DNA from: a virus
Taxonomy: Duplodnaviria; Heunggongvirae; Uroviricota; Caudoviricetes
Direction: 5' to 3' (one strand)
Length of the DNA stretch: 45,237 nt
Virus record (IMG/VR): IMGVR_UViG_3300035034_002090
Location: 1-45,237 of that record
In this document: one piece after another, positions 1 to 12,116 of the stretch
Layout: the number at the start of each line of letters is the position of its first letter
Numbering within the stretch: the stretch's first letter is position 1
Translations under genes and position numbers: made by a program
The notes under the pieces: model-generated
Told to the model about the DNA's origin: nothing
What the model saw: only the letters and a program-made list of their open reading frames with translations
The model's database searches: none

Positions 1-24
1 CTCCGGGCGCTGATGAGGCAGGCC
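1..24 (+). ncRNA. Hammerhead ribozyme, type II, 3' part only (truncated by window start) (HH0)
   Basis: CTGATGA (10-16), GGC (17-19), AGGCC tail, then AGGGAG SD; same layout as the 3' half of the complete copies downstream. Confidence 0.6.
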
Positions 25-48
25 GACAACAAACCAAAGGGAGATGCT

Positions 49-398
49 ATGCGACTTTCAACCAAGAGAAGATTTCACAACGCGCTCAGCGAAATGGGTG
101 GACCTGCGTCGAGAAAACAGAGTCCGATGAATTTGAGCACCATTGTGGCGAGTACGCCAACTATCGATTCATCTCAGAGAGAGGTGAGCCACTGAAAGCC
201 CAGATAAGCTACAGGTTCCGAGATCCTCATGTAGATGATCTTGTCGATGAAGATTGTGAGGACTGGACGGTTCTCATCTTCAGCGATGACAGGACGGGAA
301 CTGCTGGCAAGATGATCTACGACGAACATGCGTTAACGCAGAAGGAAGTCACCGCTCTCACCAAAGAAGCTCTTGGCAACTTTCAATGTGACGAGTAG
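49..398 (+). pseudogene. Hypothetical ~116 aa protein with a 1-nt frameshift at the start (or assembly error)
   Basis: SD AGGGAG 38-43 and ATG 49, but the long open frame (ATFNQEKISQRAQRNGWTC...FQCDE, TAG 396-398) is offset by one base; ATG+GCG share one G. Confidence 0.5.
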
Positions 399-464
399 CC
401 GAAATGCCCCGGTCCAACGGGGCATCTGGTAGGGGTGGCCTCCTGCCACTGAAGAGGCAGGCCA
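398..464 (+). ncRNA. Hammerhead ribozyme, type II with pseudoknot (HH1); predicted cleavage after C426 (AUC)
   Basis: GCC-GAAA; stem III TGCCCCG/CGGGGCA; TC; stem I TGGTAGG/CCTGCCA; CTGAAGA; GGC; loop TGGCC pairs with tail GGCCA (460-464). Confidence 0.92.
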
Positions 465-488
465 TTTAATTTACATCAGGGAGGTATC

Positions 489-1124
489 ATGGATGAAGAG
501 ACACTAAGAAAATTCGGCACCAAGCACACGGTGTTCTGTAGTCCCGGAGCGGATTGCAGATATGTAGAAGGGCTGGGGGAGTTCAAGAATACCGAGGAAG
601 CTTTTTTAGCTGCGGCAAAGGCTGTGGGTAACGGGCTAAAGGATGTGGCCATGGCAACTGTCATGTTCGGATCTGACTTGATTGGATGTTTTCTGAATCG
701 CAACGGAAACCCTGTGCCGGTGACGGGAACGTTTGCGAATGACGAGCACCTGAACATGGCGGTTCAGGCGCAGTACAAATTCATCCTCCATCGCACCCGG
801 CAAGGGAGTAAGGATTGGGCCAAGGAGTATCTGTCTGAGGTCGGGCAGAAGGTCGGATTCGAGTTCGATGGCGAGCCTCACGAGTCCGATGTGTACGACG
901 ACGGATTCGATCTCGACATGATCGTTGGATGGAAGGGTACGGGACTCACCCTGTCCATCGTGTTTGAGGAAGGCAACCCTCACCTCTATGCTACAGAGTC
1001 TGGAGGTTCGGTGGGCCACCCTTGGCATGATGAGTTCTACGACATCGAACTCACTGAAGCTGTCGAGCTGCAAGAGATCGTCGATGAGATCACGTGGGCG
1101 TTCGAGAAGCCTCGGGATCTCTAG
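489..1124 (+). CDS. Hypothetical protein (211 aa, acidic)
   Basis: ORF with AGGGAGG SD; TAG overlaps first base of the next ribozyme. Confidence 0.85.
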   Translation: MDEETLRKFGTKHTVFCSPGADCRYVEGLGEFKNTEEAFLAAAKAVGNGLKDVAMATVMFGSDLIGCFLNRNGNPVPVTGTFANDEHLNMAVQAQYKFILHRTRQGSKDWAKEYLSEVGQKVGFEFDGEPHESDVYDDGFDLDMIVGWKGTGLTLSIVFEEGNPHLYATESGGSVGHPWHDEFYDIELTEAVELQEIVDEITWAFEKPRDL

Positions 1125-1198
1125 CCGAAACGCGAGTGCACACGATTGCACTCGCGTCTGACTGAATTAACCATCAGTCACTGATGAGGCAGGTTAAT
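1124..1198 (+). ncRNA. Hammerhead ribozyme, type II with pseudoknot (HH2); cleavage after C1158 (GUC)
   Basis: GCC-GAAA; 10-bp stem III CGCGAGTGCA/TGCACTCGCG; TC; stem I TGACTGA/TCAGTCA; CTGATGA; GGC; loop ATTAACC pairs with tail GGTTAAT. Confidence 0.95.
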
Positions 1199-1216
1199 CA
1201 CACAAGGGAGGAACTA

Positions 1217-1522
1217 ATGTTTATCATCGCGCATGACGGACAGACCACGATCATGAGAGTGCAGCGCTACCGGAATCACTCAGGGCGGTTCCTTATGCTG
1301 AAAAAGAGCGCTTCCAGCAACGCCATGTATAGCACGAGTAGCGAGTTCGGAAACCTTTCCGATGCGAAGAGGCGTCTACTAGATCGAACCAAAATTACCG
1401 GGCAAAGAAACCCGATGGATGCGCTCTTCGACATGCTCACTCAGGACATGTGGATCTACGACAGCAAGAGTGAGTCGGCCAAGAAGATCTACGACATCGA
1501 AGACCAATGGGTCGATGGCTGA
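1217..1522 (+). CDS. Hypothetical protein (101 aa)
   Basis: ATG 1217 after AGGGAGG; the ORF-track start at 1184 lies inside the ribozyme core. Confidence 0.8.
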   Translation: MFIIAHDGQTTIMRVQRYRNHSGRFLMLKKSASSNAMYSTSSEFGNLSDAKRRLLDRTKITGQRNPMDALFDMLTQDMWIYDSKSESAKKIYDIEDQWVDG

Positions 1523-1535
1523 TTCATGGCCTGAA

Positions 1536-1597
1536 GTCGAAACGCCCTTCGGGGCGTCTGCCAGAAGGCAACCGAGCTGGCACTGATGAGGCAGGTT
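1536..1597 (+). ncRNA. Hammerhead ribozyme, type II (HH3); cleavage after C1558 (GUC)
   Basis: GTC-GAAA; stem III CGCCC-TTCG-GGGCG; TC; stem I TGCCAG/CTGGCA; CTGATGA; GGC (one G-U in stem II); loop AACC pairs with tail GGTT. Confidence 0.92.
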
Positions 1598-1618
1598 AAT
1601 CACACAAGGGAGGACGCA

Positions 1619-2083
1619 ATGTCTTTACAAAACCAGTACAACGATTTCAAGCGACACGCCGAATCAGGCGCGTTGTCCGACCCCGACCCACGGCGCTGCA
1701 AGTGTCATGGTGGAGGATGGATTCTTTCCGACTTCGACACGTTCCATAAGTGCCCCTCGCACACCGGTCGATACCATCCCGAGAACGACCACATTGAGGG
1801 CAGGACCTATGAATGGTTCGGAGGCTGCCAATGGGAGCGCGTCGGAGAGAACGTCTGGCTTCTCAGGGCGTACTACCATGGATACGGCAAGGACGCTTAC
1901 CATGAAGCTGTGGAGCGCGGAGAAGAAGTCGTCGATGATGCCCCGACATGGGTCGAGTACACCGTTGACGAAAACGGCCGAGCCTACATGAAGTCGGGCT
2001 GGCACGAAGGCGTCAAGGAATGGGAGAGTGTCAAGGTGCTTCGCAAGATCGTCTCTTGGCAGTTCAAAGAAAACTTGGGGTAA
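1619..2083 (+). CDS. Hypothetical protein with Cys/His cluster (CKC...HKCPSH)
   Basis: ATG 1619 after AGGGAGG SD. Confidence 0.8.
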   Translation: MSLQNQYNDFKRHAESGALSDPDPRRCKCHGGGWILSDFDTFHKCPSHTGRYHPENDHIEGRTYEWFGGCQWERVGENVWLLRAYYHGYGKDAYHEAVERGEEVVDDAPTWVEYTVDENGRAYMKSGWHEGVKEWESVKVLRKIVSWQFKENLG

Positions 2084-2639
2084 GTGATGTTGAGCAGAGA
2101 TTCTGAAGTAAAGGACTTTCCGATTCTTGAGAGCCTCATCGACGGCGAACACATCTTGGTCAAGGAGGACCTCGAAGGGCAGAATGTAGTGGACGGTTCA
2201 GTTGTGCTTGGCATGAAAGCTGGGCCATCAATCTGCGTCGACAACGCCTGTCATGAAATGGCGCACCTCATCGAAATAGATGAAGCCCGCATCACTTCTG
2301 TGAATTGGGGGTGATCGTGTGGAGATACCGGGCTTACGAGCTTACAACGAGTTCCGTTCGTCAGATCACATCGATCGCGAGATTCGCGTCTGGGCCATCC
2401 AGTGGCATATCCAGCAGTACATCGAAAAGCCCGTGACCTTCGATAAGCTAGGAAGGGTGGGTTACTGGCTTCCTGATATTTTTAGGCTCAAAAAGCGGGG
2501 CCTAAAAAGCACACTCGATAGGGGCACGGTGACGTCTTGGTTCGCCGAGGCCATCGAAAGAGAGAGTGAATCCCACACCATAGAAGGGATCCTTGAAGAG
2601 CTGGAGAGACGCAGAAGCATCATTGCCTCTCGAAAGTAA
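2084..2639 (+). pseudogene. HEXXH metallopeptidase-like gene split by a frameshift near 2307-2318
   Basis: ORF 2084-2314 has HEMAH; ORF 2319-2639 (other frame, no SD) carries a candidate third-ligand E (DREIRVWA); G5 run at the junction. Confidence 0.5.
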
Positions 2640-2642
2640 GGC

Positions 2643-2670
2643 TTGACACGCCCTTTCATTTAACTAGTAT
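2643..2670 (+). promoter_or_regulatory. Sigma70-like promoter
   Basis: TTGACA-16 nt-TAGTAT; shares TTGACACG...TTTC...TAG with 6098 and 9970. Confidence 0.6.
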
Positions 2671-2701
2671 TGACGTAACTCAGGAATGGAGATCAAGGAA
2701 G

Positions 2702-2995
2702 ATGTCAACGAAGGGAGAACGAAGGGTGCGAGGAATGAAGCTCGCCGCGATGAATGGTGGCAGGCGATGGACCAGCACCGTCAAAATCAAGGCCATCCTC
2801 GAAAACGATGAGCTTGAACCGCAAGAGTCGATGAACCTGATCGCCAAGAAGATCAAACGCTCTGGGGCGTTCTCTGAGATTCTATGCGAAGAGATCCAGA
2901 CAGCAGCAGACGAGAACGACGTCGAATGGTTCGATGACGTTCTGTCTGCCGCATATGAAGAAGCTGACGAGAAAGGCATCTGGATGGGTCCCTGA
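2702..2995 (+). CDS. Hypothetical protein (97 aa)
   Basis: ORF with AAGGA SD downstream of promoter. Confidence 0.75.
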   Translation: MSTKGERRVRGMKLAAMNGGRRWTSTVKIKAILENDELEPQESMNLIAKKIKRSGAFSEILCEEIQTAADENDVEWFDDVLSAAYEEADEKGIWMGP

Positions 2996-3009
2996 CTCAA
3001 AGTAGCTTA

Positions 3010-3072
3010 GCCGAAACGCCCTCCGGGGCGTCTGGCGAGCATTGACCAGCTCGCCATTGATGAGGCAGGTCA
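3010..3072 (+). ncRNA. Hammerhead ribozyme, type II, C3U core variant (HH4); cleavage after C3032 (GUC)
   Basis: GCC-GAAA; CGCCC-TCCG-GGGCG; TC; stem I TGGCGAGC/GCTCGCCA; TTGATGA; GGC; loop TGACC pairs with tail GGTCA. Confidence 0.88.
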
Positions 3073-3096
3073 CACATTCATTCAAAGGGAGGAAAG

Positions 3097-3621
3097 ATGA
3101 CCATTTATTCAATCGGAAGCGGCGGGCTCAAACCATGCAAGAAGCTGAGCCTCCACGAGAACATCGAGTGCTACATGGGCGATTCGGATAGTCCCAAGCA
3201 CATCGTTATCACTCGCGTAACCGAGGACCGGGTGTATTTCACTCAACGCTACAGTGACTACCGGGAAGAGCGATTCGAGTCTCGGCCCATCATTGACGAT
3301 CTCATCAAGAACGGAACCACAACGTGGCTGGAGGGCTACGGCCCGAAGCATTTCCCGGAGCTTGCCGAGAGCCTTAAGCGCTTGCTCGATGGTGGCGAGC
3401 CAGACAAGGTTGACCCGAAGGACTTCGAGTTCGTTACGGCAGCAATGGCTCCGGCCGAAGGCGACGAGCACGCTGTCTGGAGGGCGGCCAAAAGCTACGG
3501 GGTGATGCACGGCTACAACGAGGATGAGGGTTACTTCTCAGTGAGGTGCTCTCGCCAAGTCGTCGAGGACATCCGAGAAGACGAGCAATTCACTGACGTC
3601 CGTATCATCAAGGACGCATAA
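3097..3621 (+). CDS. Hypothetical protein (174 aa)
   Basis: ORF after AGGGAGG SD in ribozyme tail. Confidence 0.85.
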   Translation: MTIYSIGSGGLKPCKKLSLHENIECYMGDSDSPKHIVITRVTEDRVYFTQRYSDYREERFESRPIIDDLIKNGTTTWLEGYGPKHFPELAESLKRLLDGGEPDKVDPKDFEFVTAAMAPAEGDEHAVWRAAKSYGVMHGYNEDEGYFSVRCSRQVVEDIREDEQFTDVRIIKDA

Positions 3622-3624
3622 CCA

Positions 3625-3699
3625 ACCGAAACGCGAGTGCACACAATTGCACTCGCGTCTGCCCAACACTGACCGGTCGGGCACTGACGAGGCAGGTCA
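3625..3699 (+). ncRNA. Hammerhead ribozyme, type II (HH5); cleavage after C3659 (GUC)
   Basis: ACC-GAAA; stem III CGCGAGTGCA/TGCACTCGCG; TC; stem I TGCCC/GGGCA; CTGACGA; GGC (2-bp stem II); loop TGACC pairs with tail GGTCA. Confidence 0.9.
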
Positions 3700-3719
3700 C
3701 ACAAATCAAGGGAGAACAG

Positions 3720-4097
3720 ATGGAAAACGAATTCAATTATCGAATTGCTGAGGTCACGTCGTTAGCGAAAATCACACTCAGATGGAAGCGTCATCTGCTT
3801 CTGGCAATTACCGAGGATGTCAGGGAGAATATCGAAGGCATCGAACACACCCATGTCGCCGAAGACCAGAACCAAAATCACACCGTGTGGTTCGAGTTCG
3901 ATGACGGCACGAAGGTCTATGCAGAGCACGGTGGATTCGCCGAGAGGTTCGACACTTGTATCGGCTTGAGTAAGAAAGAGAAGGGCGACTACGACACAAG
4001 CTGGGGACGCTTCAGGTATGACATCGAGGACGACTGGCAAGAGGTTGCCCGGAAGTTCACAAACTACCTTCGTGAGCAACGCAACAAACTGAGTTGA
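3720..4097 (+). CDS. Hypothetical protein (125 aa)
   Basis: ORF after AAGGGAG SD. Confidence 0.85.
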   Translation: MENEFNYRIAEVTSLAKITLRWKRHLLLAITEDVRENIEGIEHTHVAEDQNQNHTVWFEFDDGTKVYAEHGGFAERFDTCIGLSKKEKGDYDTSWGRFRYDIEDDWQEVARKFTNYLREQRNKLS

Positions 4098-4109
4098 GTC
4101 GAAACTCAG

Positions 4110-4370
4110 GTGCTCTACACGCTTGAAGACTCAACCAATGGATACCCAATGGAAGACGCAAACTATACCGTATTAACTGGCTCCGAAGGCGCAGCAGACT
4201 TCACCCTGTACGAAGATGCCGTAGACTTCGTTAACAACGAGGCTGACGAATACGAAGATGATGGATACGAATGCGATCGATCTTTGGCATCGGCCAATAA
4301 TCTTTACGCGGTTCGATGTGAGAAGAAAGGGGAATCGGTCGACATCCAGATCATTCTCAAAGAGGACTAA
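4110..4370 (+). CDS. Hypothetical acidic protein (86 aa; start uncertain)
   Basis: ORF fills the gap between 4097 and HH6; GTG start without a clear SD. Confidence 0.65.
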   Translation: MLYTLEDSTNGYPMEDANYTVLTGSEGAADFTLYEDAVDFVNNEADEYEDDGYECDRSLASANNLYAVRCEKKGESVDIQIILKED

Positions 4371-4376
4371 TCAAAA

Positions 4377-4442
4377 GCCGAAACGCTCCGGGTAACCGGG
4401 CGTCTGGCTGAGTTGACCACCAGCTACTGAAGAGGCAGGTCA
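4377..4442 (+). ncRNA. Hammerhead ribozyme, type II (HH6); cleavage after C4404 (GUC)
   Basis: GCC-GAAA; stem III CGC(T)CCGG-GTAA-CCGGGCG; TC; stem I TGGCTG/CAGCTA; CTGAAGA; GGC; loop TGACC pairs with tail GGTCA. Confidence 0.93.
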
Positions 4443-4466
4443 CACATTCATTCAAGGGAGGCCGCC

Positions 4467-4880
4467 ATGCAGCAAGACAACAAACAGCCAATCAGCCTCA
4501 AGGGATTCGAAGGACAAACCGTCCAATTCTTTGATCCTTGGGAACTCGGCCGAGATGCCGACTACTTCTACTTGGTTCGATTCGTCGGATCGATGACCAA
4601 CTACGTTATCCCGAGCGACAACAACCACGAAGACGGATACCAAGAGGTTACCGAGGATGTCTTCAGGACTCCGGAAGGCGAACGCTATCGCATCATCGAG
4701 GGCACTCCTGAGTACGATGACTATCAAGAGGACATCGACAAGCATATCATCGGCGAATGCGATCGCATTCGCTATCATGAAGATGGATTCTACTACGACA
4801 CCGAAACCATCGAGGTCACCCAACGTGTCGATCGTGGGGACATCACGTTCGAGCTTGCTGAGGTGAGGCCCATTCGATAG
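4467..4880 (+). CDS. Hypothetical acidic protein (137 aa)
   Basis: ORF after AAGGGAGG SD. Confidence 0.85.
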   Translation: MQQDNKQPISLKGFEGQTVQFFDPWELGRDADYFYLVRFVGSMTNYVIPSDNNHEDGYQEVTEDVFRTPEGERYRIIEGTPEYDDYQEDIDKHIIGECDRIRYHEDGFYYDTETIEVTQRVDRGDITFELAEVRPIR

Positions 4881-4889
4881 GAGCACGAG

Positions 4890-5108
4890 ATGAGCTACAA
4901 ATGCGAAGACGTGAACAGATATGGGCACGCCATGTATGACTACTGCTGGCAAAACAAGCATCAGTCAAAAGGCACAGCTCATAAGGTAGACCCCGACACA
5001 GGGCTACCAGCTTGCGGGAGAGTAAGGGATTTGGGGTCGCTAGAATTCACAGATCACCTCCCCGGCGAACCACACTGTAAGATATGCTTCAAAGGCAAGG
5101 ACATCTGA
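4890..5108 (+). CDS. Small putative zinc-binding protein (72 aa)
   Basis: AGGAG SD; H...CG...HCKIC motif. Confidence 0.75.
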   Translation: MSYKCEDVNRYGHAMYDYCWQNKHQSKGTAHKVDPDTGLPACGRVRDLGSLEFTDHLPGEPHCKICFKGKDI

Positions 5109-5539
5109 GCCGAAACGCCCTTAGGGGCGTCGTCACCGGGTGCGTTCCGGTGGCATTGCTGATCGTGCCCGTTTCGGACGTGTCCAGTGGAGGGGTTGGC
5201 GTCTTGACGGTACGTCGAGGTATCGACCCCCAAAAAGGAAAGCTCGCCCTCCCGGGAGGTTTCATCGAGACCGGAGAAACATGGAAGTCGGCCGCTGTTC
5301 GAGAGCTACAGGAAGAAACGGGCCTTCACTATCCAGCTAGCTCTGTAACATCATTCGACATCAAGGATGGTCGATCCACGGTGCTTCTTTTCGGACTACT
5401 ATCAGATGAGGTGCGCTCGTCTGAAATAGTCGAGCAATTCACGCCCAACCGTGAAGTAACAGGACTTGAGATCATCACCGAACCCCGCGAACTGGCTTTT
5501 CCTTCGCACACCGAAGTCATCAAACAGTTTTTCGATTGA
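5084..5539 (+). CDS. Nudix hydrolase (ADP-ribose pyrophosphatase-like), apparently N-terminally truncated
   Basis: Nudix box GGFIETGETWKSAAVRELQEETGL preceded by GKLALP; the first 16 codons of the ORF-track start overlap the upstream gene and the ribozyme half, with no SD. Confidence 0.75.
   Translation: MLQRQGHLSRNALRGVVTGCVPVALLIVPVSDVSSGGVGVLTVRRGIDPQKGKLALPGGFIETGETWKSAAVRELQEETGLHYPASSVTSFDIKDGRSTVLLFGLLSDEVRSSEIVEQFTPNREVTGLEIITEPRELAFPSHTEVIKQFFD
5109..5154 (+). ncRNA. Hammerhead 5' half / degenerate copy (HH7)
   Basis: GCC-GAAA-CGCCC-TTAG-GGGCG-TC right after TGA, then hairpin GTCACCGG/CCGGTGGC, but no CTGANGA-GGC follows. Confidence 0.7.
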
Positions 5540-5572
5540 GCACGTCAACCATTCTAACACCAAGAGGCCATT

Positions 5573-6085
5573 ATGTTGCCCTACTGGAAGCCCAAAGAAA
5601 CATGGCAAGAGCTACAGTCCGAAGAAGCAAATGGCTTTGATGCACTCACTCAGGCCATCTCGCTGTCAGCCAAGTGTTGCCGGTTCTATTACGTCTTTGA
5701 TAGCGATCAGCTGACCGAAGAGAACCGAAGCAACTGGCTTCTCTGGGGCAGCATGGCTCACGACATCCACGCCATCGATGATGACGGCCCGCACCCCAAA
5801 GATTGGTCTCTTCGGGACGGGTCATGCGCATTCGTGGCAGGACAGTTCGACCTCGTCAGTGAAGGCGACTCCACCACCTCGCCCATCAGTCTGTCTGTAT
5901 ATGAGGTGGTCGAGCATGATGAATGGTCCAAAGACAGACCCATCTTCAGCGTAAGCAGCTCTATGAAGGCAGGAGAAGGGCTCATTAGCCTGTACAAATG
6001 TCTATTCAATCATGAGGTGAGCCGCAAGAAGCTCATCGTGGGCAGCGCGGTAGGCATATTGCGAGAGGTCCACGACCGAAGATAA
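5573..6085 (+). CDS. Hypothetical protein (170 aa)
   Basis: ORF with GAGG SD. Confidence 0.7.
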   Translation: MLPYWKPKETWQELQSEEANGFDALTQAISLSAKCCRFYYVFDSDQLTEENRSNWLLWGSMAHDIHAIDDDGPHPKDWSLRDGSCAFVAGQFDLVSEGDSTTSPISLSVYEVVEHDEWSKDRPIFSVSSSMKAGEGLISLYKCLFNHEVSRKKLIVGSAVGILREVHDRR

Positions 6086-6097
6086 ACAACAACACAT

Positions 6098-6126
6098 TTG
6101 ACACGTCAGTTTCGTTATGTTAGGTA
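6098..6126 (+). promoter_or_regulatory. Sigma70-like promoter
   Basis: TTGACACGT...TTTC...ATGTTAG, aligns base-for-base in spacing with 9970-9998. Confidence 0.55.
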
Positions 6127-6225
6127 AGGTGAGGCCGGATAAGGAAGTCCGGCCCAGCGGGGACACTATCGACCATACGGAGGTTGGCATGAAGCCTGTC
6201 AAGATGGATCACTCTCTACCGCGAC

Positions 6226-6264
6226 ATCCCCGCATGGTTGCTGGGGATCTGATGAGGCAGACCG
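6226..6264 (+). ncRNA. Hammerhead 3' half / degenerate copy (HH8)
   Basis: Stem ATCCCC/GGGGAT directly followed by CTGATGA-GGC-AGACC; loop TGGTT can pair with GACCG; preceded by GAC rather than GUC and no GAAA upstream. Confidence 0.65.
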
Positions 6265-6291
6265 CGATTTATTTTACAAAAAGGAATAGCC

Positions 6292-7731
6292 ATGGAAGAG
6301 CTTAAAAAAAATATCCACCAGAAGGTTGAAGAAATTCAAGAGATTCAGTCCGAGTATGAGGCCCTAGTCGATAAGATGAAGGCAGCAGGACCAGCAAAAG
6401 CAAGCCAGATGGCGCAAGAGTTCAGCACGCTGGCTGAATCTCAGCAGAATCTTTCAACTGAAATTGGTGAAATGATTGTCGAGTGGGTTTCACAAAGCGG
6501 CACTTTGAGCTTGTCTCATGGCGACGAAGAAAGCAGCACACAATCGCCAGAAGTCGCAAACATGAAGAAGCCTGCGCGACGGGTCTACACACCTTCCGAC
6601 GATGAACCAAGGGCCAAGAAGCTCGGAACTGTACGGCATCATGCCTCCAGCTCCAACAGGGATCCGGACCAGCAGTGGACGCAGAAAGATTCGAACAGGA
6701 TGATTCATGCCTACTCCGAGGTCTTTCCGGACATCATTGAGAAGCTCGGTGAGCCTGAGAAAGATCTGGGCTCAATGACTCCCATCAGCAACGAACTAAG
6801 GGTCCTTACTCAGGTTGTAGACGGGAGAGAATCGTGGCGCTGGCTTCCCACAGCTGCCCAAAAGGCACTCGTAAGTTACATCGTTGCACGGGGCAGGCGT
6901 CTTCAAGATCAGGCGGATCGTGGAACCCTCAGCCTCATCAACGGACAAGACAAGCTCGACGCCCTGTTTCCGAGGCTTACGGCGTTCACGAAGACCGAGA
7001 TGAGGGAGTTCATTCACGGTCTTGCCCGAGGTCACGATCCGAAGCGAGGCTCGTGGCTCGAAGATGCGCGTTACTGGCTCGAAGAGATCAACCGGCTTCT
7101 CGACAGGGGTGGATCCGAAGAGCAGCAGTTCAACCCGGACATCGCCCTGAACGCGCTCGACGAATTTATGGAGACTCGTCAGCCGAACAGCGGCAAGATC
7201 AAAGAGTACGTCGCTGATATGATCGAGTCGGGTATGCCTGTTGATGACCCCAGATTTCTGAAGCGTCTCGACGAGCATAGAAACATTTTCAGGGGCTCTA
7301 AATTCAAAACCCTTAGAGATGCTTTCAGGGAGCAAGAAAAGACCGAAGAAGAGGTGGAGACGCAGTCCCTGATGACGCACTGGCCCTACCTGTCGGAGAC
7401 CCTCGGCAAGCGCGCCTTCATGACTGGAGGCGAGCCCCGGGAGGATGCCCGACGAAACATCGAGGACGCGTTCGGATTCGACAGTCTGGACTGGTGCCCG
7501 TCTGACCAGCACAGGAAGATGAAGTCCTACGCTAAAAGGATCATTGGTGAGAACTATGACATCGCCATCCTGCTGACCAGCCTCATGGGCCACGATACCA
7601 ATGTCATCAGAGACGCGTGCAAGCGTGTCGGTATCCCGTGCGTCTTTGTCGCGCAGGGGTATGGGCCGTCTCGTATCGCGCATTCGATCGAGAAGAACTT
7701 CGCTCACGCGGAGGCAGCTGTAGCAGGTTAA
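6292..7731 (+). CDS. Coiled-coil protein with C-terminal DUF2325-like domain
   Basis: N-terminal heptad-like helix; C-terminus AFMTGG...DIAILLTSLMGH...DACKRVGIPCVFV resembles DUF2325. Confidence 0.75.
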   Translation: MEELKKNIHQKVEEIQEIQSEYEALVDKMKAAGPAKASQMAQEFSTLAESQQNLSTEIGEMIVEWVSQSGTLSLSHGDEESSTQSPEVANMKKPARRVYTPSDDEPRAKKLGTVRHHASSSNRDPDQQWTQKDSNRMIHAYSEVFPDIIEKLGEPEKDLGSMTPISNELRVLTQVVDGRESWRWLPTAAQKALVSYIVARGRRLQDQADRGTLSLINGQDKLDALFPRLTAFTKTEMREFIHGLARGHDPKRGSWLEDARYWLEEINRLLDRGGSEEQQFNPDIALNALDEFMETRQPNSGKIKEYVADMIESGMPVDDPRFLKRLDEHRNIFRGSKFKTLRDAFREQEKTEEEVETQSLMTHWPYLSETLGKRAFMTGGEPREDARRNIEDAFGFDSLDWCPSDQHRKMKSYAKRIIGENYDIAILLTSLMGHDTNVIRDACKRVGIPCVFVAQGYGPSRIAHSIEKNFAHAEAAVAG

Positions 7732-7785
7732 CCCAAATGCACCCTCTGGATTTTCTGGCGGGTGCCCAATCTACCGGAGGACGGC

Positions 7786-7983
7786 ATGAATGAAGATGAG
7801 CTATGTATGGGTAGTGGCCGAACTTTGGCCATGACTCAGGCGGACGTTGAACGTCACAAGAAGGGCGTCAAGCTAAAGTGCCCGGTTTGCGGCCGACGAC
7901 TAACCCCGACGCTTATGAGGGATCCAAGCGGCAACTACGAAGGCGAGCTGCCGGATCACAAAGCCAAGGAGGCTGCATCATGA
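7786..7983 (+). CDS. Small zinc-ribbon protein
   Basis: GGAGG SD; CMGSG...CPVCGRR...H. Confidence 0.7.
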   Translation: MNEDELCMGSGRTLAMTQADVERHKKGVKLKCPVCGRRLTPTLMRDPSGNYEGELPDHKAKEAAS

Positions 7984-8357
7984 AAAAAGTTATTGGCTAT
8001 ACACGCATACCGCCGGGAGGCGATGAAGCCCTTCTCCAAAAGCAGGCTAGCGACATCGAGTTATTCTGCAAGAATTGGGATTTCAAGCTTCTTCGCATTG
8101 AAAGTGACATCGCCGAGGGTGTCGGCAAAACAGGGGGCCGACCTGAAGGCATGAGAGCGGTCCTAGAATCGATCGCCAGAAACGAGGTCATGCATCTCGT
8201 CATCGCCGACCTCGTGTGTATTTCAGATTCATTTGAGGGCGCGCTGGACTTCAGGGACCGTAACTTTGGATACGGCCCACGAGGAATCTGGGTGGTTAAC
8301 TCACACGGAAACCTCCCATGGGCGTTTCAAGGAAAGGAGGGATTTGCCGATGTCTGA
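7980..8357 (+). CDS. Resolvase-like catalytic-domain paralogue lacking the nucleophile serine
   Basis: KKVIGYTRIPP (cf. YARVST), LLRIESDIAEG..GRPEG, HLVIADLVCISD (cf. TKLDRLTR); AAGGAGG SD; ATGA overlap. Confidence 0.7.
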   Translation: MKKVIGYTRIPPGGDEALLQKQASDIELFCKNWDFKLLRIESDIAEGVGKTGGRPEGMRAVLESIARNEVMHLVIADLVCISDSFEGALDFRDRNFGYGPRGIWVVNSHGNLPWAFQGKEGFADV

Positions 8358-9063
8358 AAAAGCAATTGGATACGCACGCGTTTCGACTGAAGAGCAATCT
8401 TCTGAAGGCGTCAGCTTGGAAATGCAGGCTGAAAAAATCTCTAGCTACTGTGGCCTGTACGATCTCGAACTTATTCGCATCGAAGAGGATGCAGGCATCT
8501 CAGGTAAGAGCACGAGAAAGCGCAAGGGCCTTAAGAAGGCCATGGATGCCATCAAGGCAGGTGAGGCGACCCATCTAGTTGTCACCAAGCTCGATCGCCT
8601 CACTCGATCGCTCATGGACTTCAACAGAATGCTCGAAGAGTATTTCTCGGACAAGTACACACTTCACTCCGTGGCAGACAGGCTCGACACCAAGTCCGCA
8701 AACGGAAGGCTTGTCGTCAACATTTTGATGAGTGTCTGCCAATGGGAGCGCGAGGTCATCTCAGAGCGCACACGCGAAGCGCTTCAGCACAAGATCTCCA
8801 AAATGGAATACGTTGGAGGCAATGTCCCTTATGGCTATGTCCTGTCAGACGACGGTGTAATGCTGGAACCGATCCCTGAAGAACAATACACCGTTGACTA
8901 TATCTACGAGTTGAGAGAAGATCTCGACATGAGCTATCGGGCCATTGCCGATCAGCTCAAATCCGAAGGTATCTATGATCGAACGGGCGACCCCTTTGGT
9001 CATAACCAGATACGGCGGATTGTGGTGAGCAGTTATCACAAGCAGTACCGCCAAGCTTCGTGA
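8350..9063 (+). CDS. Serine recombinase (resolvase family, short recombinase/HTH C-terminus)
   Basis: AIGYARVSTEEQ, DAGISGK, KLDRLTRS, WEREVISERTREAL, GGNVPYGY; AAGGAGG SD. Confidence 0.93.
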   Translation: MSEKAIGYARVSTEEQSSEGVSLEMQAEKISSYCGLYDLELIRIEEDAGISGKSTRKRKGLKKAMDAIKAGEATHLVVTKLDRLTRSLMDFNRMLEEYFSDKYTLHSVADRLDTKSANGRLVVNILMSVCQWEREVISERTREALQHKISKMEYVGGNVPYGYVLSDDGVMLEPIPEEQYTVDYIYELREDLDMSYRAIADQLKSEGIYDRTGDPFGHNQIRRIVVSSYHKQYRQAS

Positions 9064-9127
9064 CGCCAGTTTTGTGATCGGCTCGATGTCCTATCGGCCG
9101 CTCTCCGAACCTCCCTGCGTCACGAAA

Positions 9128-9166
9128 GGGTGAAGGAGTTGGTATGCCTCACTGACTCCTTCACCC
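9128..9166. terminator. 16-bp hairpin between convergent genes (bidirectional terminator or recombination site)
   Basis: GGGTGAAGGAGTTGGT / ACTGACTCCTTCACCC. Confidence 0.6.
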
Positions 9167-9179
9167 ACTTTACCCCCCT

Positions 9180-9887
9180 TCAATTAGATTCGCTCATCTC
9201 TTCTAATACGATGCCTTGTACGTCTTTGAATAACGGGTCCTCTAAAATCCCCCCACTCTCAATTCGTAAGCGCTCCTTCTCAAGGCGACGTCTCACAAGC
9301 CCCTTGAATGGCCACATAAAAAGGTAGTCGGGGCCGGTAAATTTTCGCTCGACAAACCTCATGTAGGCCCAATCAATGCTCCCGCGTCTCCAGTATCTTG
9401 CAGCCATCGACATCGTGTATCCACGAAACTCAGCCCAAGCCCGGACGGGGGATGGAAGAGGAAGCAAAAACAGAAGTGCCAGAAGACACCATAACATCGG
9501 CAGATACCAGAACGCTCCAAGCGCCCCTAGCGCAATCATAGCGAAGATCTGCGGTACGATGTACCCGAGGTCAAAAAGATGGAATGGGATTCTGTCTCGG
9601 TCCCGCATATGAACTAACTCGTGCGCCAGTATCACCCAAGCTGATGACGACTCGATGTATGCGCGTGTTGGAAACCAGATCGTCTTTCCAATGACCGATG
9701 TGTAAGTCGTAAGGTATCGGTGCACGCGGTCGCCGTTTTCATCATCGCTCCAGAGCCAGAACGCAAGCCGCTCTCCAACGAACCTATGAAACTTTGACTC
9801 TTCTTTGAACTTGATCTCCATGTCCGGAAATCTGCGTCGGCCCAAGCTTAAAACCCTCGTGTAAATTCTGTCGTCTACGCTACTCAT
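9180..9887 (-). CDS. Membrane-associated HEXXH zinc metallopeptidase-like protein
   Basis: ILAHELVH, hydrophobic hairpin, then AWAEFRGY. Confidence 0.75.
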   Translation of the reverse strand: MSSVDDRIYTRVLSLGRRRFPDMEIKFKEESKFHRFVGERLAFWLWSDDENGDRVHRYLTTYTSVIGKTIWFPTRAYIESSSAWVILAHELVHMRDRDRIPFHLFDLGYIVPQIFAMIALGALGAFWYLPMLWCLLALLFLLPLPSPVRAWAEFRGYTMSMAARYWRRGSIDWAYMRFVERKFTGPDYLFMWPFKGLVRRRLEKERLRIESGGILEDPLFKDVQGIVLEEMSESN

Positions 9888-11956: not shown

Positions 11957-12116
11957 GTTAACGTAGTATAAGGTTCCACAGAATTTCGACTAGGCATCGA
12001 ACATTCATTTAGGCGCGCCTCTAGGAAGGAGGCCAAGGAAGCGAAACTAGATCCTGTTCAGTTTTCAACGAGCTGTCGCTGAGCGTGCTAACATACCCTA
12101 TGCCGACGAGGATTAA

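Follow-up and report, generated by a model that had tools for sequence, protein, structure and literature searches.

A long array of type II hammerhead ribozymes in a T4-like lake phage: probable mRNA punctuation with repeats likely doubling as DNA crossover points

The accessible text of Perreault et al. 2011 (PMC3088659) describes type II hammerhead ribozymes with a pseudoknot, which occur in clusters flanking prophage genes and which cleave in three clusters; a role in mRNA processing was proposed there, and circles were considered, with no spliced or circular products detected. The role of such clustered phage hammerheads has been unsettled since 2011. In a separate line of work, the accessible parts of Arbiol et al. 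2010 (PMC2839356) report recombination at PeSL repeats (a promoter with a terminator stem-loop) in the T4-type phages RB49 and phi1, resulting in gene loss and gain, chimeric elements and DNA minicircles. Here we describe an array of type II hammerheads interspersed with small genes at one end of the virus record IMGVR_UViG_3300035034_002090 (henceforth G000), a linear record of 173,237 bases rated 84% complete; the window is its first 45,237 bases. The layout of this array has been known since 2011, and what is added here is its size, its apparent polymorphism and the mapping of its junctions. We propose that the array probably serves as mRNA punctuation and that its repeats double as DNA crossover points comparable to PeSL.

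The window contains six complete type II pseudoknot hammerheads (HH1-HH6), a further copy clipped by the contig end, whose first base falls inside this ribozyme (HH0), and two half-ribozymes:

1..48, plus strand: HH0, with the right arm of stem I, core at 10-16, a stem II arm, pseudoknot tail and Shine-Dalgarno
398..488, plus strand: HH1, complete, with predicted cut after 426, core at 449, tail and Shine-Dalgarno; 50.1 bits against Rfam RF02276
1124..1216, plus strand: HH2, predicted cut after 1158, core at 1181, seven-pair pseudoknot; 36.9 bits
1536..1618, plus strand: HH3, predicted cut after 1558, core at 1583; 40.7 bits
3010..3096, plus strand: HH4, predicted cut after 3032, core variant UUGAUGA at 3057; 39.1 bits
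3625..3719, plus strand: HH5, predicted cut after 3659, core at 3684, stem II arm ACC; 35.1 bits
4377..4466, plus strand: HH6, predicted cut after 4404, core at 4427, tail common to HH4; 36.1 bits
5109..5155, plus strand: HH7 relic, a 5' half running to GUC (5131), then a nine-pair hairpin with its right arm formed by Nudix coding sequence; core absent
6226..6266, plus strand: orphan 3' half with stem I, core and pseudoknot tail, upstream of a gene at 6292

Several copies lie on one strand and flank single genes or short blocks, and each complete copy follows the same order of stop codon, ribozyme, tail, Shine-Dalgarno and start codon. The Rfam Hammerhead_II model (RF02276) matched at positions 397, 1123, 1535, 3009, 3624 and 4376 with 35.1-50.1 bits, three of the six complete copies exceeding its gathering score of 37 bits, and the same search recovered nothing comparable to HH1-HH6 elsewhere in G000. 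All six display the GAAAH, NUH and CUGANGA motifs together with closed stems III and I and an open stem II, which neither HH7 nor the half at 6226 does; by fold and motif HH1-HH6 are thus type II hammerheads, with self-cleavage predicted from their sequence. In the first-pass annotation HH7 had also been counted as a hammerhead, but it has no CUGANGA core and is hence predicted not to cut. The orphan half retains an intact stem I, core and pseudoknot tail without GAAA or stem III (a weak Rfam match spans 6205-6266 with 20.5 bits, E 0.009), and precedes a gene for a 479-residue protein of no family. Separately, a hairpin at about 4091-4138, between two cassette genes, combines GAAA with a UUGAAGA-like stretch in the absence of a complete hammerhead core, and is possibly a hammerhead relic.

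The phage is a large T4-like myophage from lake water, with T4-like portal, capsid, sheath, tube and baseplate genes in G000, and near-identical DNA is found in lake-water metagenome runs, among them the run designated X1, which is possibly where the present DNA came from. A scan of the metagenomes with the long stem III of HH2, which is common to HH0, HH5 and copy A1 of the contig L029, yielded five contigs. One of these, L029, has 12 hammerheads in 4.7 kb, 11 of them with Rfam matches, and another, L031, has two more. Run X1 spans all 30 of 30 bins of L029:1-7000, with a flank depth of 17.2 versus 16.8 for the long piece of the window, and the first array ribozyme of L029 appears in this run as a loose end of window position 1159. 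Based on the depth and the loose end, L029 and L031 are probably the missing part of the same phage, which would bring the array to about 21 copies in all. Several of the upstream cassettes show a depth of only 7-8 in X1, where the flank has 17, a difference suggesting that only some members of the population carry them or that X1 contains a mixture of two strains. Searches of viral contigs with the HH2 stem III pattern and with the serine recombinase discussed below yielded no relatives. At about 4250-5200 on the minus strand of L029, ahead of the array, there is an approximately 0.9 kb GC-rich, hairpin-rich and probably non-coding leader, with a sigma-70-like site, an atypical first hammerhead and no other Rfam match; window 12037-12074 is a 38-nucleotide inverted match (95%) to it.

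For comparisons between copies we used 19 of them (171 pairs), leaving aside HH0, HH7, the orphan half and the last L029 copy. In these, loop I forms on average 4.58 Watson-Crick pairs with its own tail, as opposed to 2.92 when the tails are permuted, a value that none of 5000 permutations reached; comparable pairing between loop I and the tail is seen in 113 copies from other phages. This covariation indicates selection on the ribozyme fold. The individual pseudoknots of HH1-HH6 have 4-7 Watson-Crick pairs (five in HH1), and the tail of HH3 forms four pairs with its own loop yet seven with that of HH2.

We then mapped the junctions at which the array has changed, the first of which involves two elements:

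1179..1212, plus strand: first copy of a 34-nucleotide core-and-tail direct repeat, containing the junction of the L031 variant
1213..1614, plus strand: 402-nucleotide unit missing in L031, comprising a gene at 1217-1522, stems III and I of HH3 and the second repeat copy (1581-1614)

The contig L031, from a near-identical strain, matches the window exactly over 10-1212 and resumes at 1581, without the 402 nucleotides of the HH2-HH3 cassette. The join lies inside the 34-nucleotide repeat, and both stem III and stem I of HH2 are kept; as a cut-to-cut loss would have placed stem I of HH3 on stem III of HH2, the retention of HH2's own stem I speaks against such a loss. The second junction is at the start of the L031-window identity, base 10, which is the first base of the HH0 core. 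Upstream of it, stem III and stem I in L031 differ from those of HH0 in run X1, and the resulting chimera has only two Watson-Crick pseudoknot pairs as against the 4-7 of HH1-HH6. At the third, HH7 is fused within stem I to a truncated Nudix gene: in 98 of its 119 relatives the alignment starts at query residue 21 or 22 (base 5144-5147), with residue 35 as the median position in the relative, and the nine-pair hairpin of HH7 begins one base past its cut and takes its right arm from the Nudix sequence (hairpins of at least eight pairs occur at 0.55% of control positions). A single ribozyme split at its cut by insertion, with HH7 and the 6226 half as its two parts, was rejected because HH7 retains its own stem I arm and the Nudix join lies 8-15 nucleotides past the cut. 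According to the first-pass annotation, the cut-to-cut segment might be the unit of gene gain or reordering, via DNA recombination between repeats or an RNA intermediate; the mapped junctions support DNA recombination inside the ribozymes and lend no support to the cut-to-cut unit, two of the three falling in core-and-tail, one in stem I and none at a cut site.

Sequence sharing among the copies points in the same direction, although not in the form first envisaged. That annotation had described ribozyme halves shuffled around the cleavage site, and its individual alignments are reproduced: a 5' block common to HH2 and HH5 (1125-1160 versus 3626-3661, 35/36 or 97%), a 34-nucleotide block common to HH2 and HH3 (1179-1212 = 1581-1614) and 24 nucleotides common to HH4 and HH6 starting at 3062. 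However, the starts of the supposed 3' halves do not coincide with the cut: the block of HH2 and HH3 sets in 20 nucleotides past it and two before the core, and that of HH4 and HH6 inside the core, the stems I being different. The CGCCC/GGGCG 5' half said to be shared by HH3, HH4 and HH7 proved generic, occurring in 39 of 130 hammerheads of other loci, across 31 loci, and the near-invariance claimed for stem II holds for a 5' arm of GCC in five of seven copies but not for HH3 (GTC) or HH5 (ACC). Exact blocks of at least 34 nucleotides are found in 4 of the 171 pairs within this phage versus 1 of 2147 pairs with other phages, frequencies which indicate sharing beyond the consensus. Thirteen of the 16 exact blocks of at least 20 nucleotides start no more than five nucleotides from the core, one starts in stem I and two span stem III and end at the cut, and stem I is different in every copy of the window. 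The ribozymes are thus mosaics of three modules (stem III, stem I and tail) and not of two halves. All three pairs with at least 30 identical core-and-tail bases are neighbors, a result reached by 169 of 100000 shuffles of 17 copies; the genes behind such identical-tail neighbors are unrelated.

In light of these observations, we consider it likely that the array acts at two levels. At the RNA level, the ribozymes, each placed between a stop codon and the next Shine-Dalgarno, are predicted to divide a single long transcript into messages spanning one to four genes; by analogy with the clusters studied earlier they would be expected to cleave in this phage. At the DNA level, the repeats would serve as crossover points through which cassettes are lost, gained and reordered, by short-homology recombination acting mostly in the longest conserved block, the CUGANGA core plus tail; the presence of a RecA-like gene in G000 is in line with this. 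Core-to-core DNA units may be excised and re-enter where the tail is most alike, as a consequence of which identical tails would come to be neighbors. Selection would remove crossovers within hairpins, so that the surviving module boundaries would coincide with conserved blocks, including the cut site.

Two groups of observations weigh against this proposal, the first of which concerns the junctions themselves. These number only three, two of them from one 4-kb contig; the 402-nucleotide loss could be an assembly collapse over the 34-nucleotide repeat; the run X2 has the 11-nucleotide insertion of L031 at 2309 yet retains the 1217 gene; and the HH0 junction rests on short letters from run X1, in which HH0 is immediately preceded by a copy of 1129-1158 and 13 further letters. 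A reading on which the ribozymes exchange only short gene-conversion patches and diverge fast in stem I, gene order being largely fixed and the L031 loss an assembly artefact, would accommodate the persistence of that gene in X2, the stem I differences between all copies here, and the collinearity of L029 with the contigs L033 (99.98%) and L032 (99.2%). We regard it as quite unlikely: provided that its X1 form has been read correctly, the HH0 junction of L031 has too few exact shared bases for k-mer collapse; the fusion to Nudix represents a rearrangement; the cassettes have half the depth in X1; and in the array of another phage a ribozyme-gene unit is duplicated in tandem (see below).

The second group concerns the cut site as a module boundary. 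The stem III identity of A1 and HH2 stops one base past the cut, and that of HH0 likewise stops at the cut in the X1 letters. A 45-nucleotide block shared by L029 and the record G018, from a different large phage, begins six bases ahead of the cut and covers stem I, core and pseudoknot tail, while the stems III differ. No block of at least 20 nucleotides extends more than three nucleotides across the cut, and stem III and stem I assort independently, with their boundary at the cut, where only 5-7 nucleotides are conserved. Among 18 copies, the stem I arms show a weak correlation with the tails (rho 0.20, p 0.03) but none with stem III (rho 0.005). Finally, a core-and-tail junction would equally result from a reverse-transcribed circle that integrates via tail homology; on this account an RNA route is still conceivable for gains, whereas losses must be DNA events. 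In 17 other arrays (158 pairs), four of 13 blocks of at least 22 nucleotides end at the cut or one base later, most of these being short generic stems, and one starts three nucleotides after the cut. Such boundaries would fit the joining of RNA ends, and would also fit selection against within-hairpin crossovers combined with the keeping of loop I with its tail.

These boundaries speak for an RNA route, in which cut-to-cut cassette RNAs circularise by self-ligation, host RtcB or a phage 2H enzyme, are reverse-transcribed in trans and re-enter the array. The circle junctions proposed in the first-pass annotation (1158->427 and 3659->3033) do agree with the predicted cut sites. Its further claim that each cassette could rebuild a hammerhead from its own ends holds on paper, given that each cut-out cassette from HH1 to HH6 opens with a 3' half and closes with a 5' half, and that the stem II arms of different copies can base-pair. 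As type II cleavage products are held by only 2-3 stem II pairs, however, self-ligation would be disfavored; predicted stem II pairing is near zero in cut-out cassettes, linear or circular, and in the precursors alike (0.000-0.106), and does not discriminate between them. With respect to enzymes, RtcB is widespread among hosts (10 of 14 control genomes), and G000 encodes a LigT-like 2H phosphoesterase with both HxT motifs (87395-88315), but this gene lies about 82 kb from the array among virion (head and tail) genes and scores 42.6 bits against a family cut-off of 65.7. No reverse transcriptase was visible in the window at first pass, and in the G000 record (84% complete) neither RVT_1 nor RtcB has a match; neither was found in 17 other array-bearing records, four of them at least 90% complete, or by Pfam in 30 open reading frames of L029 and L031. 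Further, none of the mapped junctions is at a cut, a ribozyme-bearing gene island in G018 retains stem III upstream of its first cut and has no 5' half after its second gene, and circles were not detected by Perreault et al. (PMC3088659, where the accessible text gives this as data not shown). We therefore consider this route very unlikely. In an extended form, sealed cassette circles copied by a reverse transcriptase of the host or of a co-infecting element would integrate via tail homology, constituting a gene-capture system that would create stem III/stem I chimeras at the cut boundary and move ribozyme halves between unrelated phages; we consider this version just as unlikely.

Circles might alternatively form without any bearing on cassette movement, a ligase circularising some of the cut-out messages for stability or translation while the cassettes move at the level of DNA. 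The 5'-OH and 2',3'-cyclic phosphate ends are RtcB substrates according to the pertinent part of PMC8051266, and every message would carry its own Shine-Dalgarno. Against this, the accessible text of PMC3088659, a study testing three clusters, records no circles. The 2H enzyme, for its part, may instead open the cyclic phosphate. Taking these points together we consider such circles unlikely, and favor processing by cleavage combined with DNA crossover in the core and tail.

A DNA recombinase is encoded about 3 kb from the array, namely a serine recombinase with resolvase and recombinase domains (window 8233-9063). It was considered as an integrase of the array and set aside, as nothing beyond its position 3 kb off speaks for it. 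A shorter paralogue precedes it (the pair spanning window 7878-9063), with 31% identity over 93 residues. No Pfam match to an integron integrase was seen among the 63 + 119 + 30 proteins scanned, the genome being partly missing.

The genes interspersed with the ribozymes are the following:

489..1124, plus strand: cassette gene, 211 residues, no family
1619..2995, plus strand: genes between HH3 and HH4 (1619-2083; 2084-2314 with 2319-2639; 2702-2995), no family
3097..3621, plus strand: cassette gene, 174 residues
3720..4370, plus strand: two cassette genes, 3720-4097 and about 4149-4370
4467..5108, plus strand: two cassette genes, 4467-4880 and 4890-5108, no family
5144..5539, plus strand: Nudix hydrolase gene, shorter than its relatives by roughly their first 34 residues and fused to HH7 within stem I

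Their products are largely devoid of recognizable relatives. Pfam assigned no family to 12 open reading frames of the window, PHROGs gave a single weak match of unknown function for 23 cassette reading frames, and all top Atlas matches for the cassette proteins were below 0.8. The cassette reading frames have no paralogues among themselves and no tblastn match in other loci, and a search with the 174-residue protein (3097..3621) found only itself among 28 candidates. One promoter-like site was found in 1-9200 and none inside the repeats; this sigma-70-like site, at 2643-2670, is weak, the promoter scan having given fewer sites than shuffles. Reading frames 2084-2314 and 2319-2639 resemble one broken gene, with 11 extra bases after 2309 in X2 and L031. 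The start codon that follows the HH0 tail gives a frame of just 48 codons, ending at 195, and the longer frame at 3-398 lacks a start at that place; window 49-398 is possibly a frameshifted gene, and is the same in L031. Elsewhere, G000 has 29 tRNA genes and a tmRNA, with a large tRNA cluster and the tmRNA gene within 126011-146952, as well as genes for a RecA-like protein, a TrfA-like protein (122517-123521) and a helicase (at 52244) that contains an intein-like homing endonuclease.

By one pattern, ribozymes of the same type are present at 97 viral loci, frequently as arrays. Mapping of breakpoints across loci among 154 distinct hammerheads gave 11 pairs, two of which represent the L031 event; the other nine share the entire ribozyme, and the crossover is hence not placeable in them. 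At L051 5290-6420, in the record G018, a two-gene island carries ribozyme modules that match the present array: its stem I and core are identical to those of L029 copy A8, its stems III resemble those of A6 and A2, and its first ribozyme lacks GAAA. In the 12-copy array of another phage, a ribozyme-gene unit at L073 3438-4000 has undergone an exact 237-nucleotide tandem duplication bounded in the ribozyme. In the related small phages represented by L048, L028, L055 and L083, one identical hammerhead joins different upstream and downstream genes.

The array is unusually long and apparently variable in cassette content within one sample, with full and empty alleles whose junctions can be mapped. 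If our proposal is correct, a single element would provide a new gene with its own processed message and ribosome-binding site, and at the same time offer a safe crossover point for acquisition, which would make it a ribozyme counterpart of PeSL shuffling; the DNA and RNA routes are separable, as the former would yield core-to-core DNA circles and the latter cut-to-cut RNA circles. A literature search that reached few subscription papers found no paper in which cassette junctions had been mapped to phage hammerheads.

The array resembles the clusters of Perreault et al., as far as the accessible text describes them, in its type II topology, the loop I-tail pseudoknot, the flanking of single genes or short blocks and the variable identity of these genes. 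It differs from them in scale and setting, the clusters tested there being triples, as opposed to about 21 copies in a T4-like myophage if L029 and L031 are, as inferred, from the same phage, and in the strain-level cassette loss mapped to core and tail; ribozymes as recombination sites are not treated in the accessible part of that study. With PeSL, to the extent covered by the accessible parts of Arbiol et al., it shares repeated intergenic expression signals between small genes without homologues, and gene gain and loss with junctions inside the repeat (assembly collapse being possible for one of the two L031 junctions). Here, however, the repeat is a ribozyme with a Shine-Dalgarno and not a sigma-70 promoter with a terminator, and it is known from assembled contigs alone, minicircles being a feature of PeSL. 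Retrozymes and viroid-like circles (PMC4918200 and PMC7229834, in their accessible portions) likewise present tandem hammerheads that could release unit-length RNA. Retrozymes are generally held to be non-autonomous retroelements with near-identical end repeats and abundant circles (in part PMC4918200 and PMC7229834), whereas in this array the flanking ribozymes differ, the units are protein-coding and the unit boundaries lie off the cleavage site at all three mapped junctions, although blocks shared by paralogous ribozymes do end at the cut. Finally, like integron cassette arrays, it is built of small one-gene units of variable content, but unlike them it gave no Pfam match to an integron integrase among the genes scanned; the recombinase close by is a serine enzyme, and the junctions are spread over different parts of the repeat.

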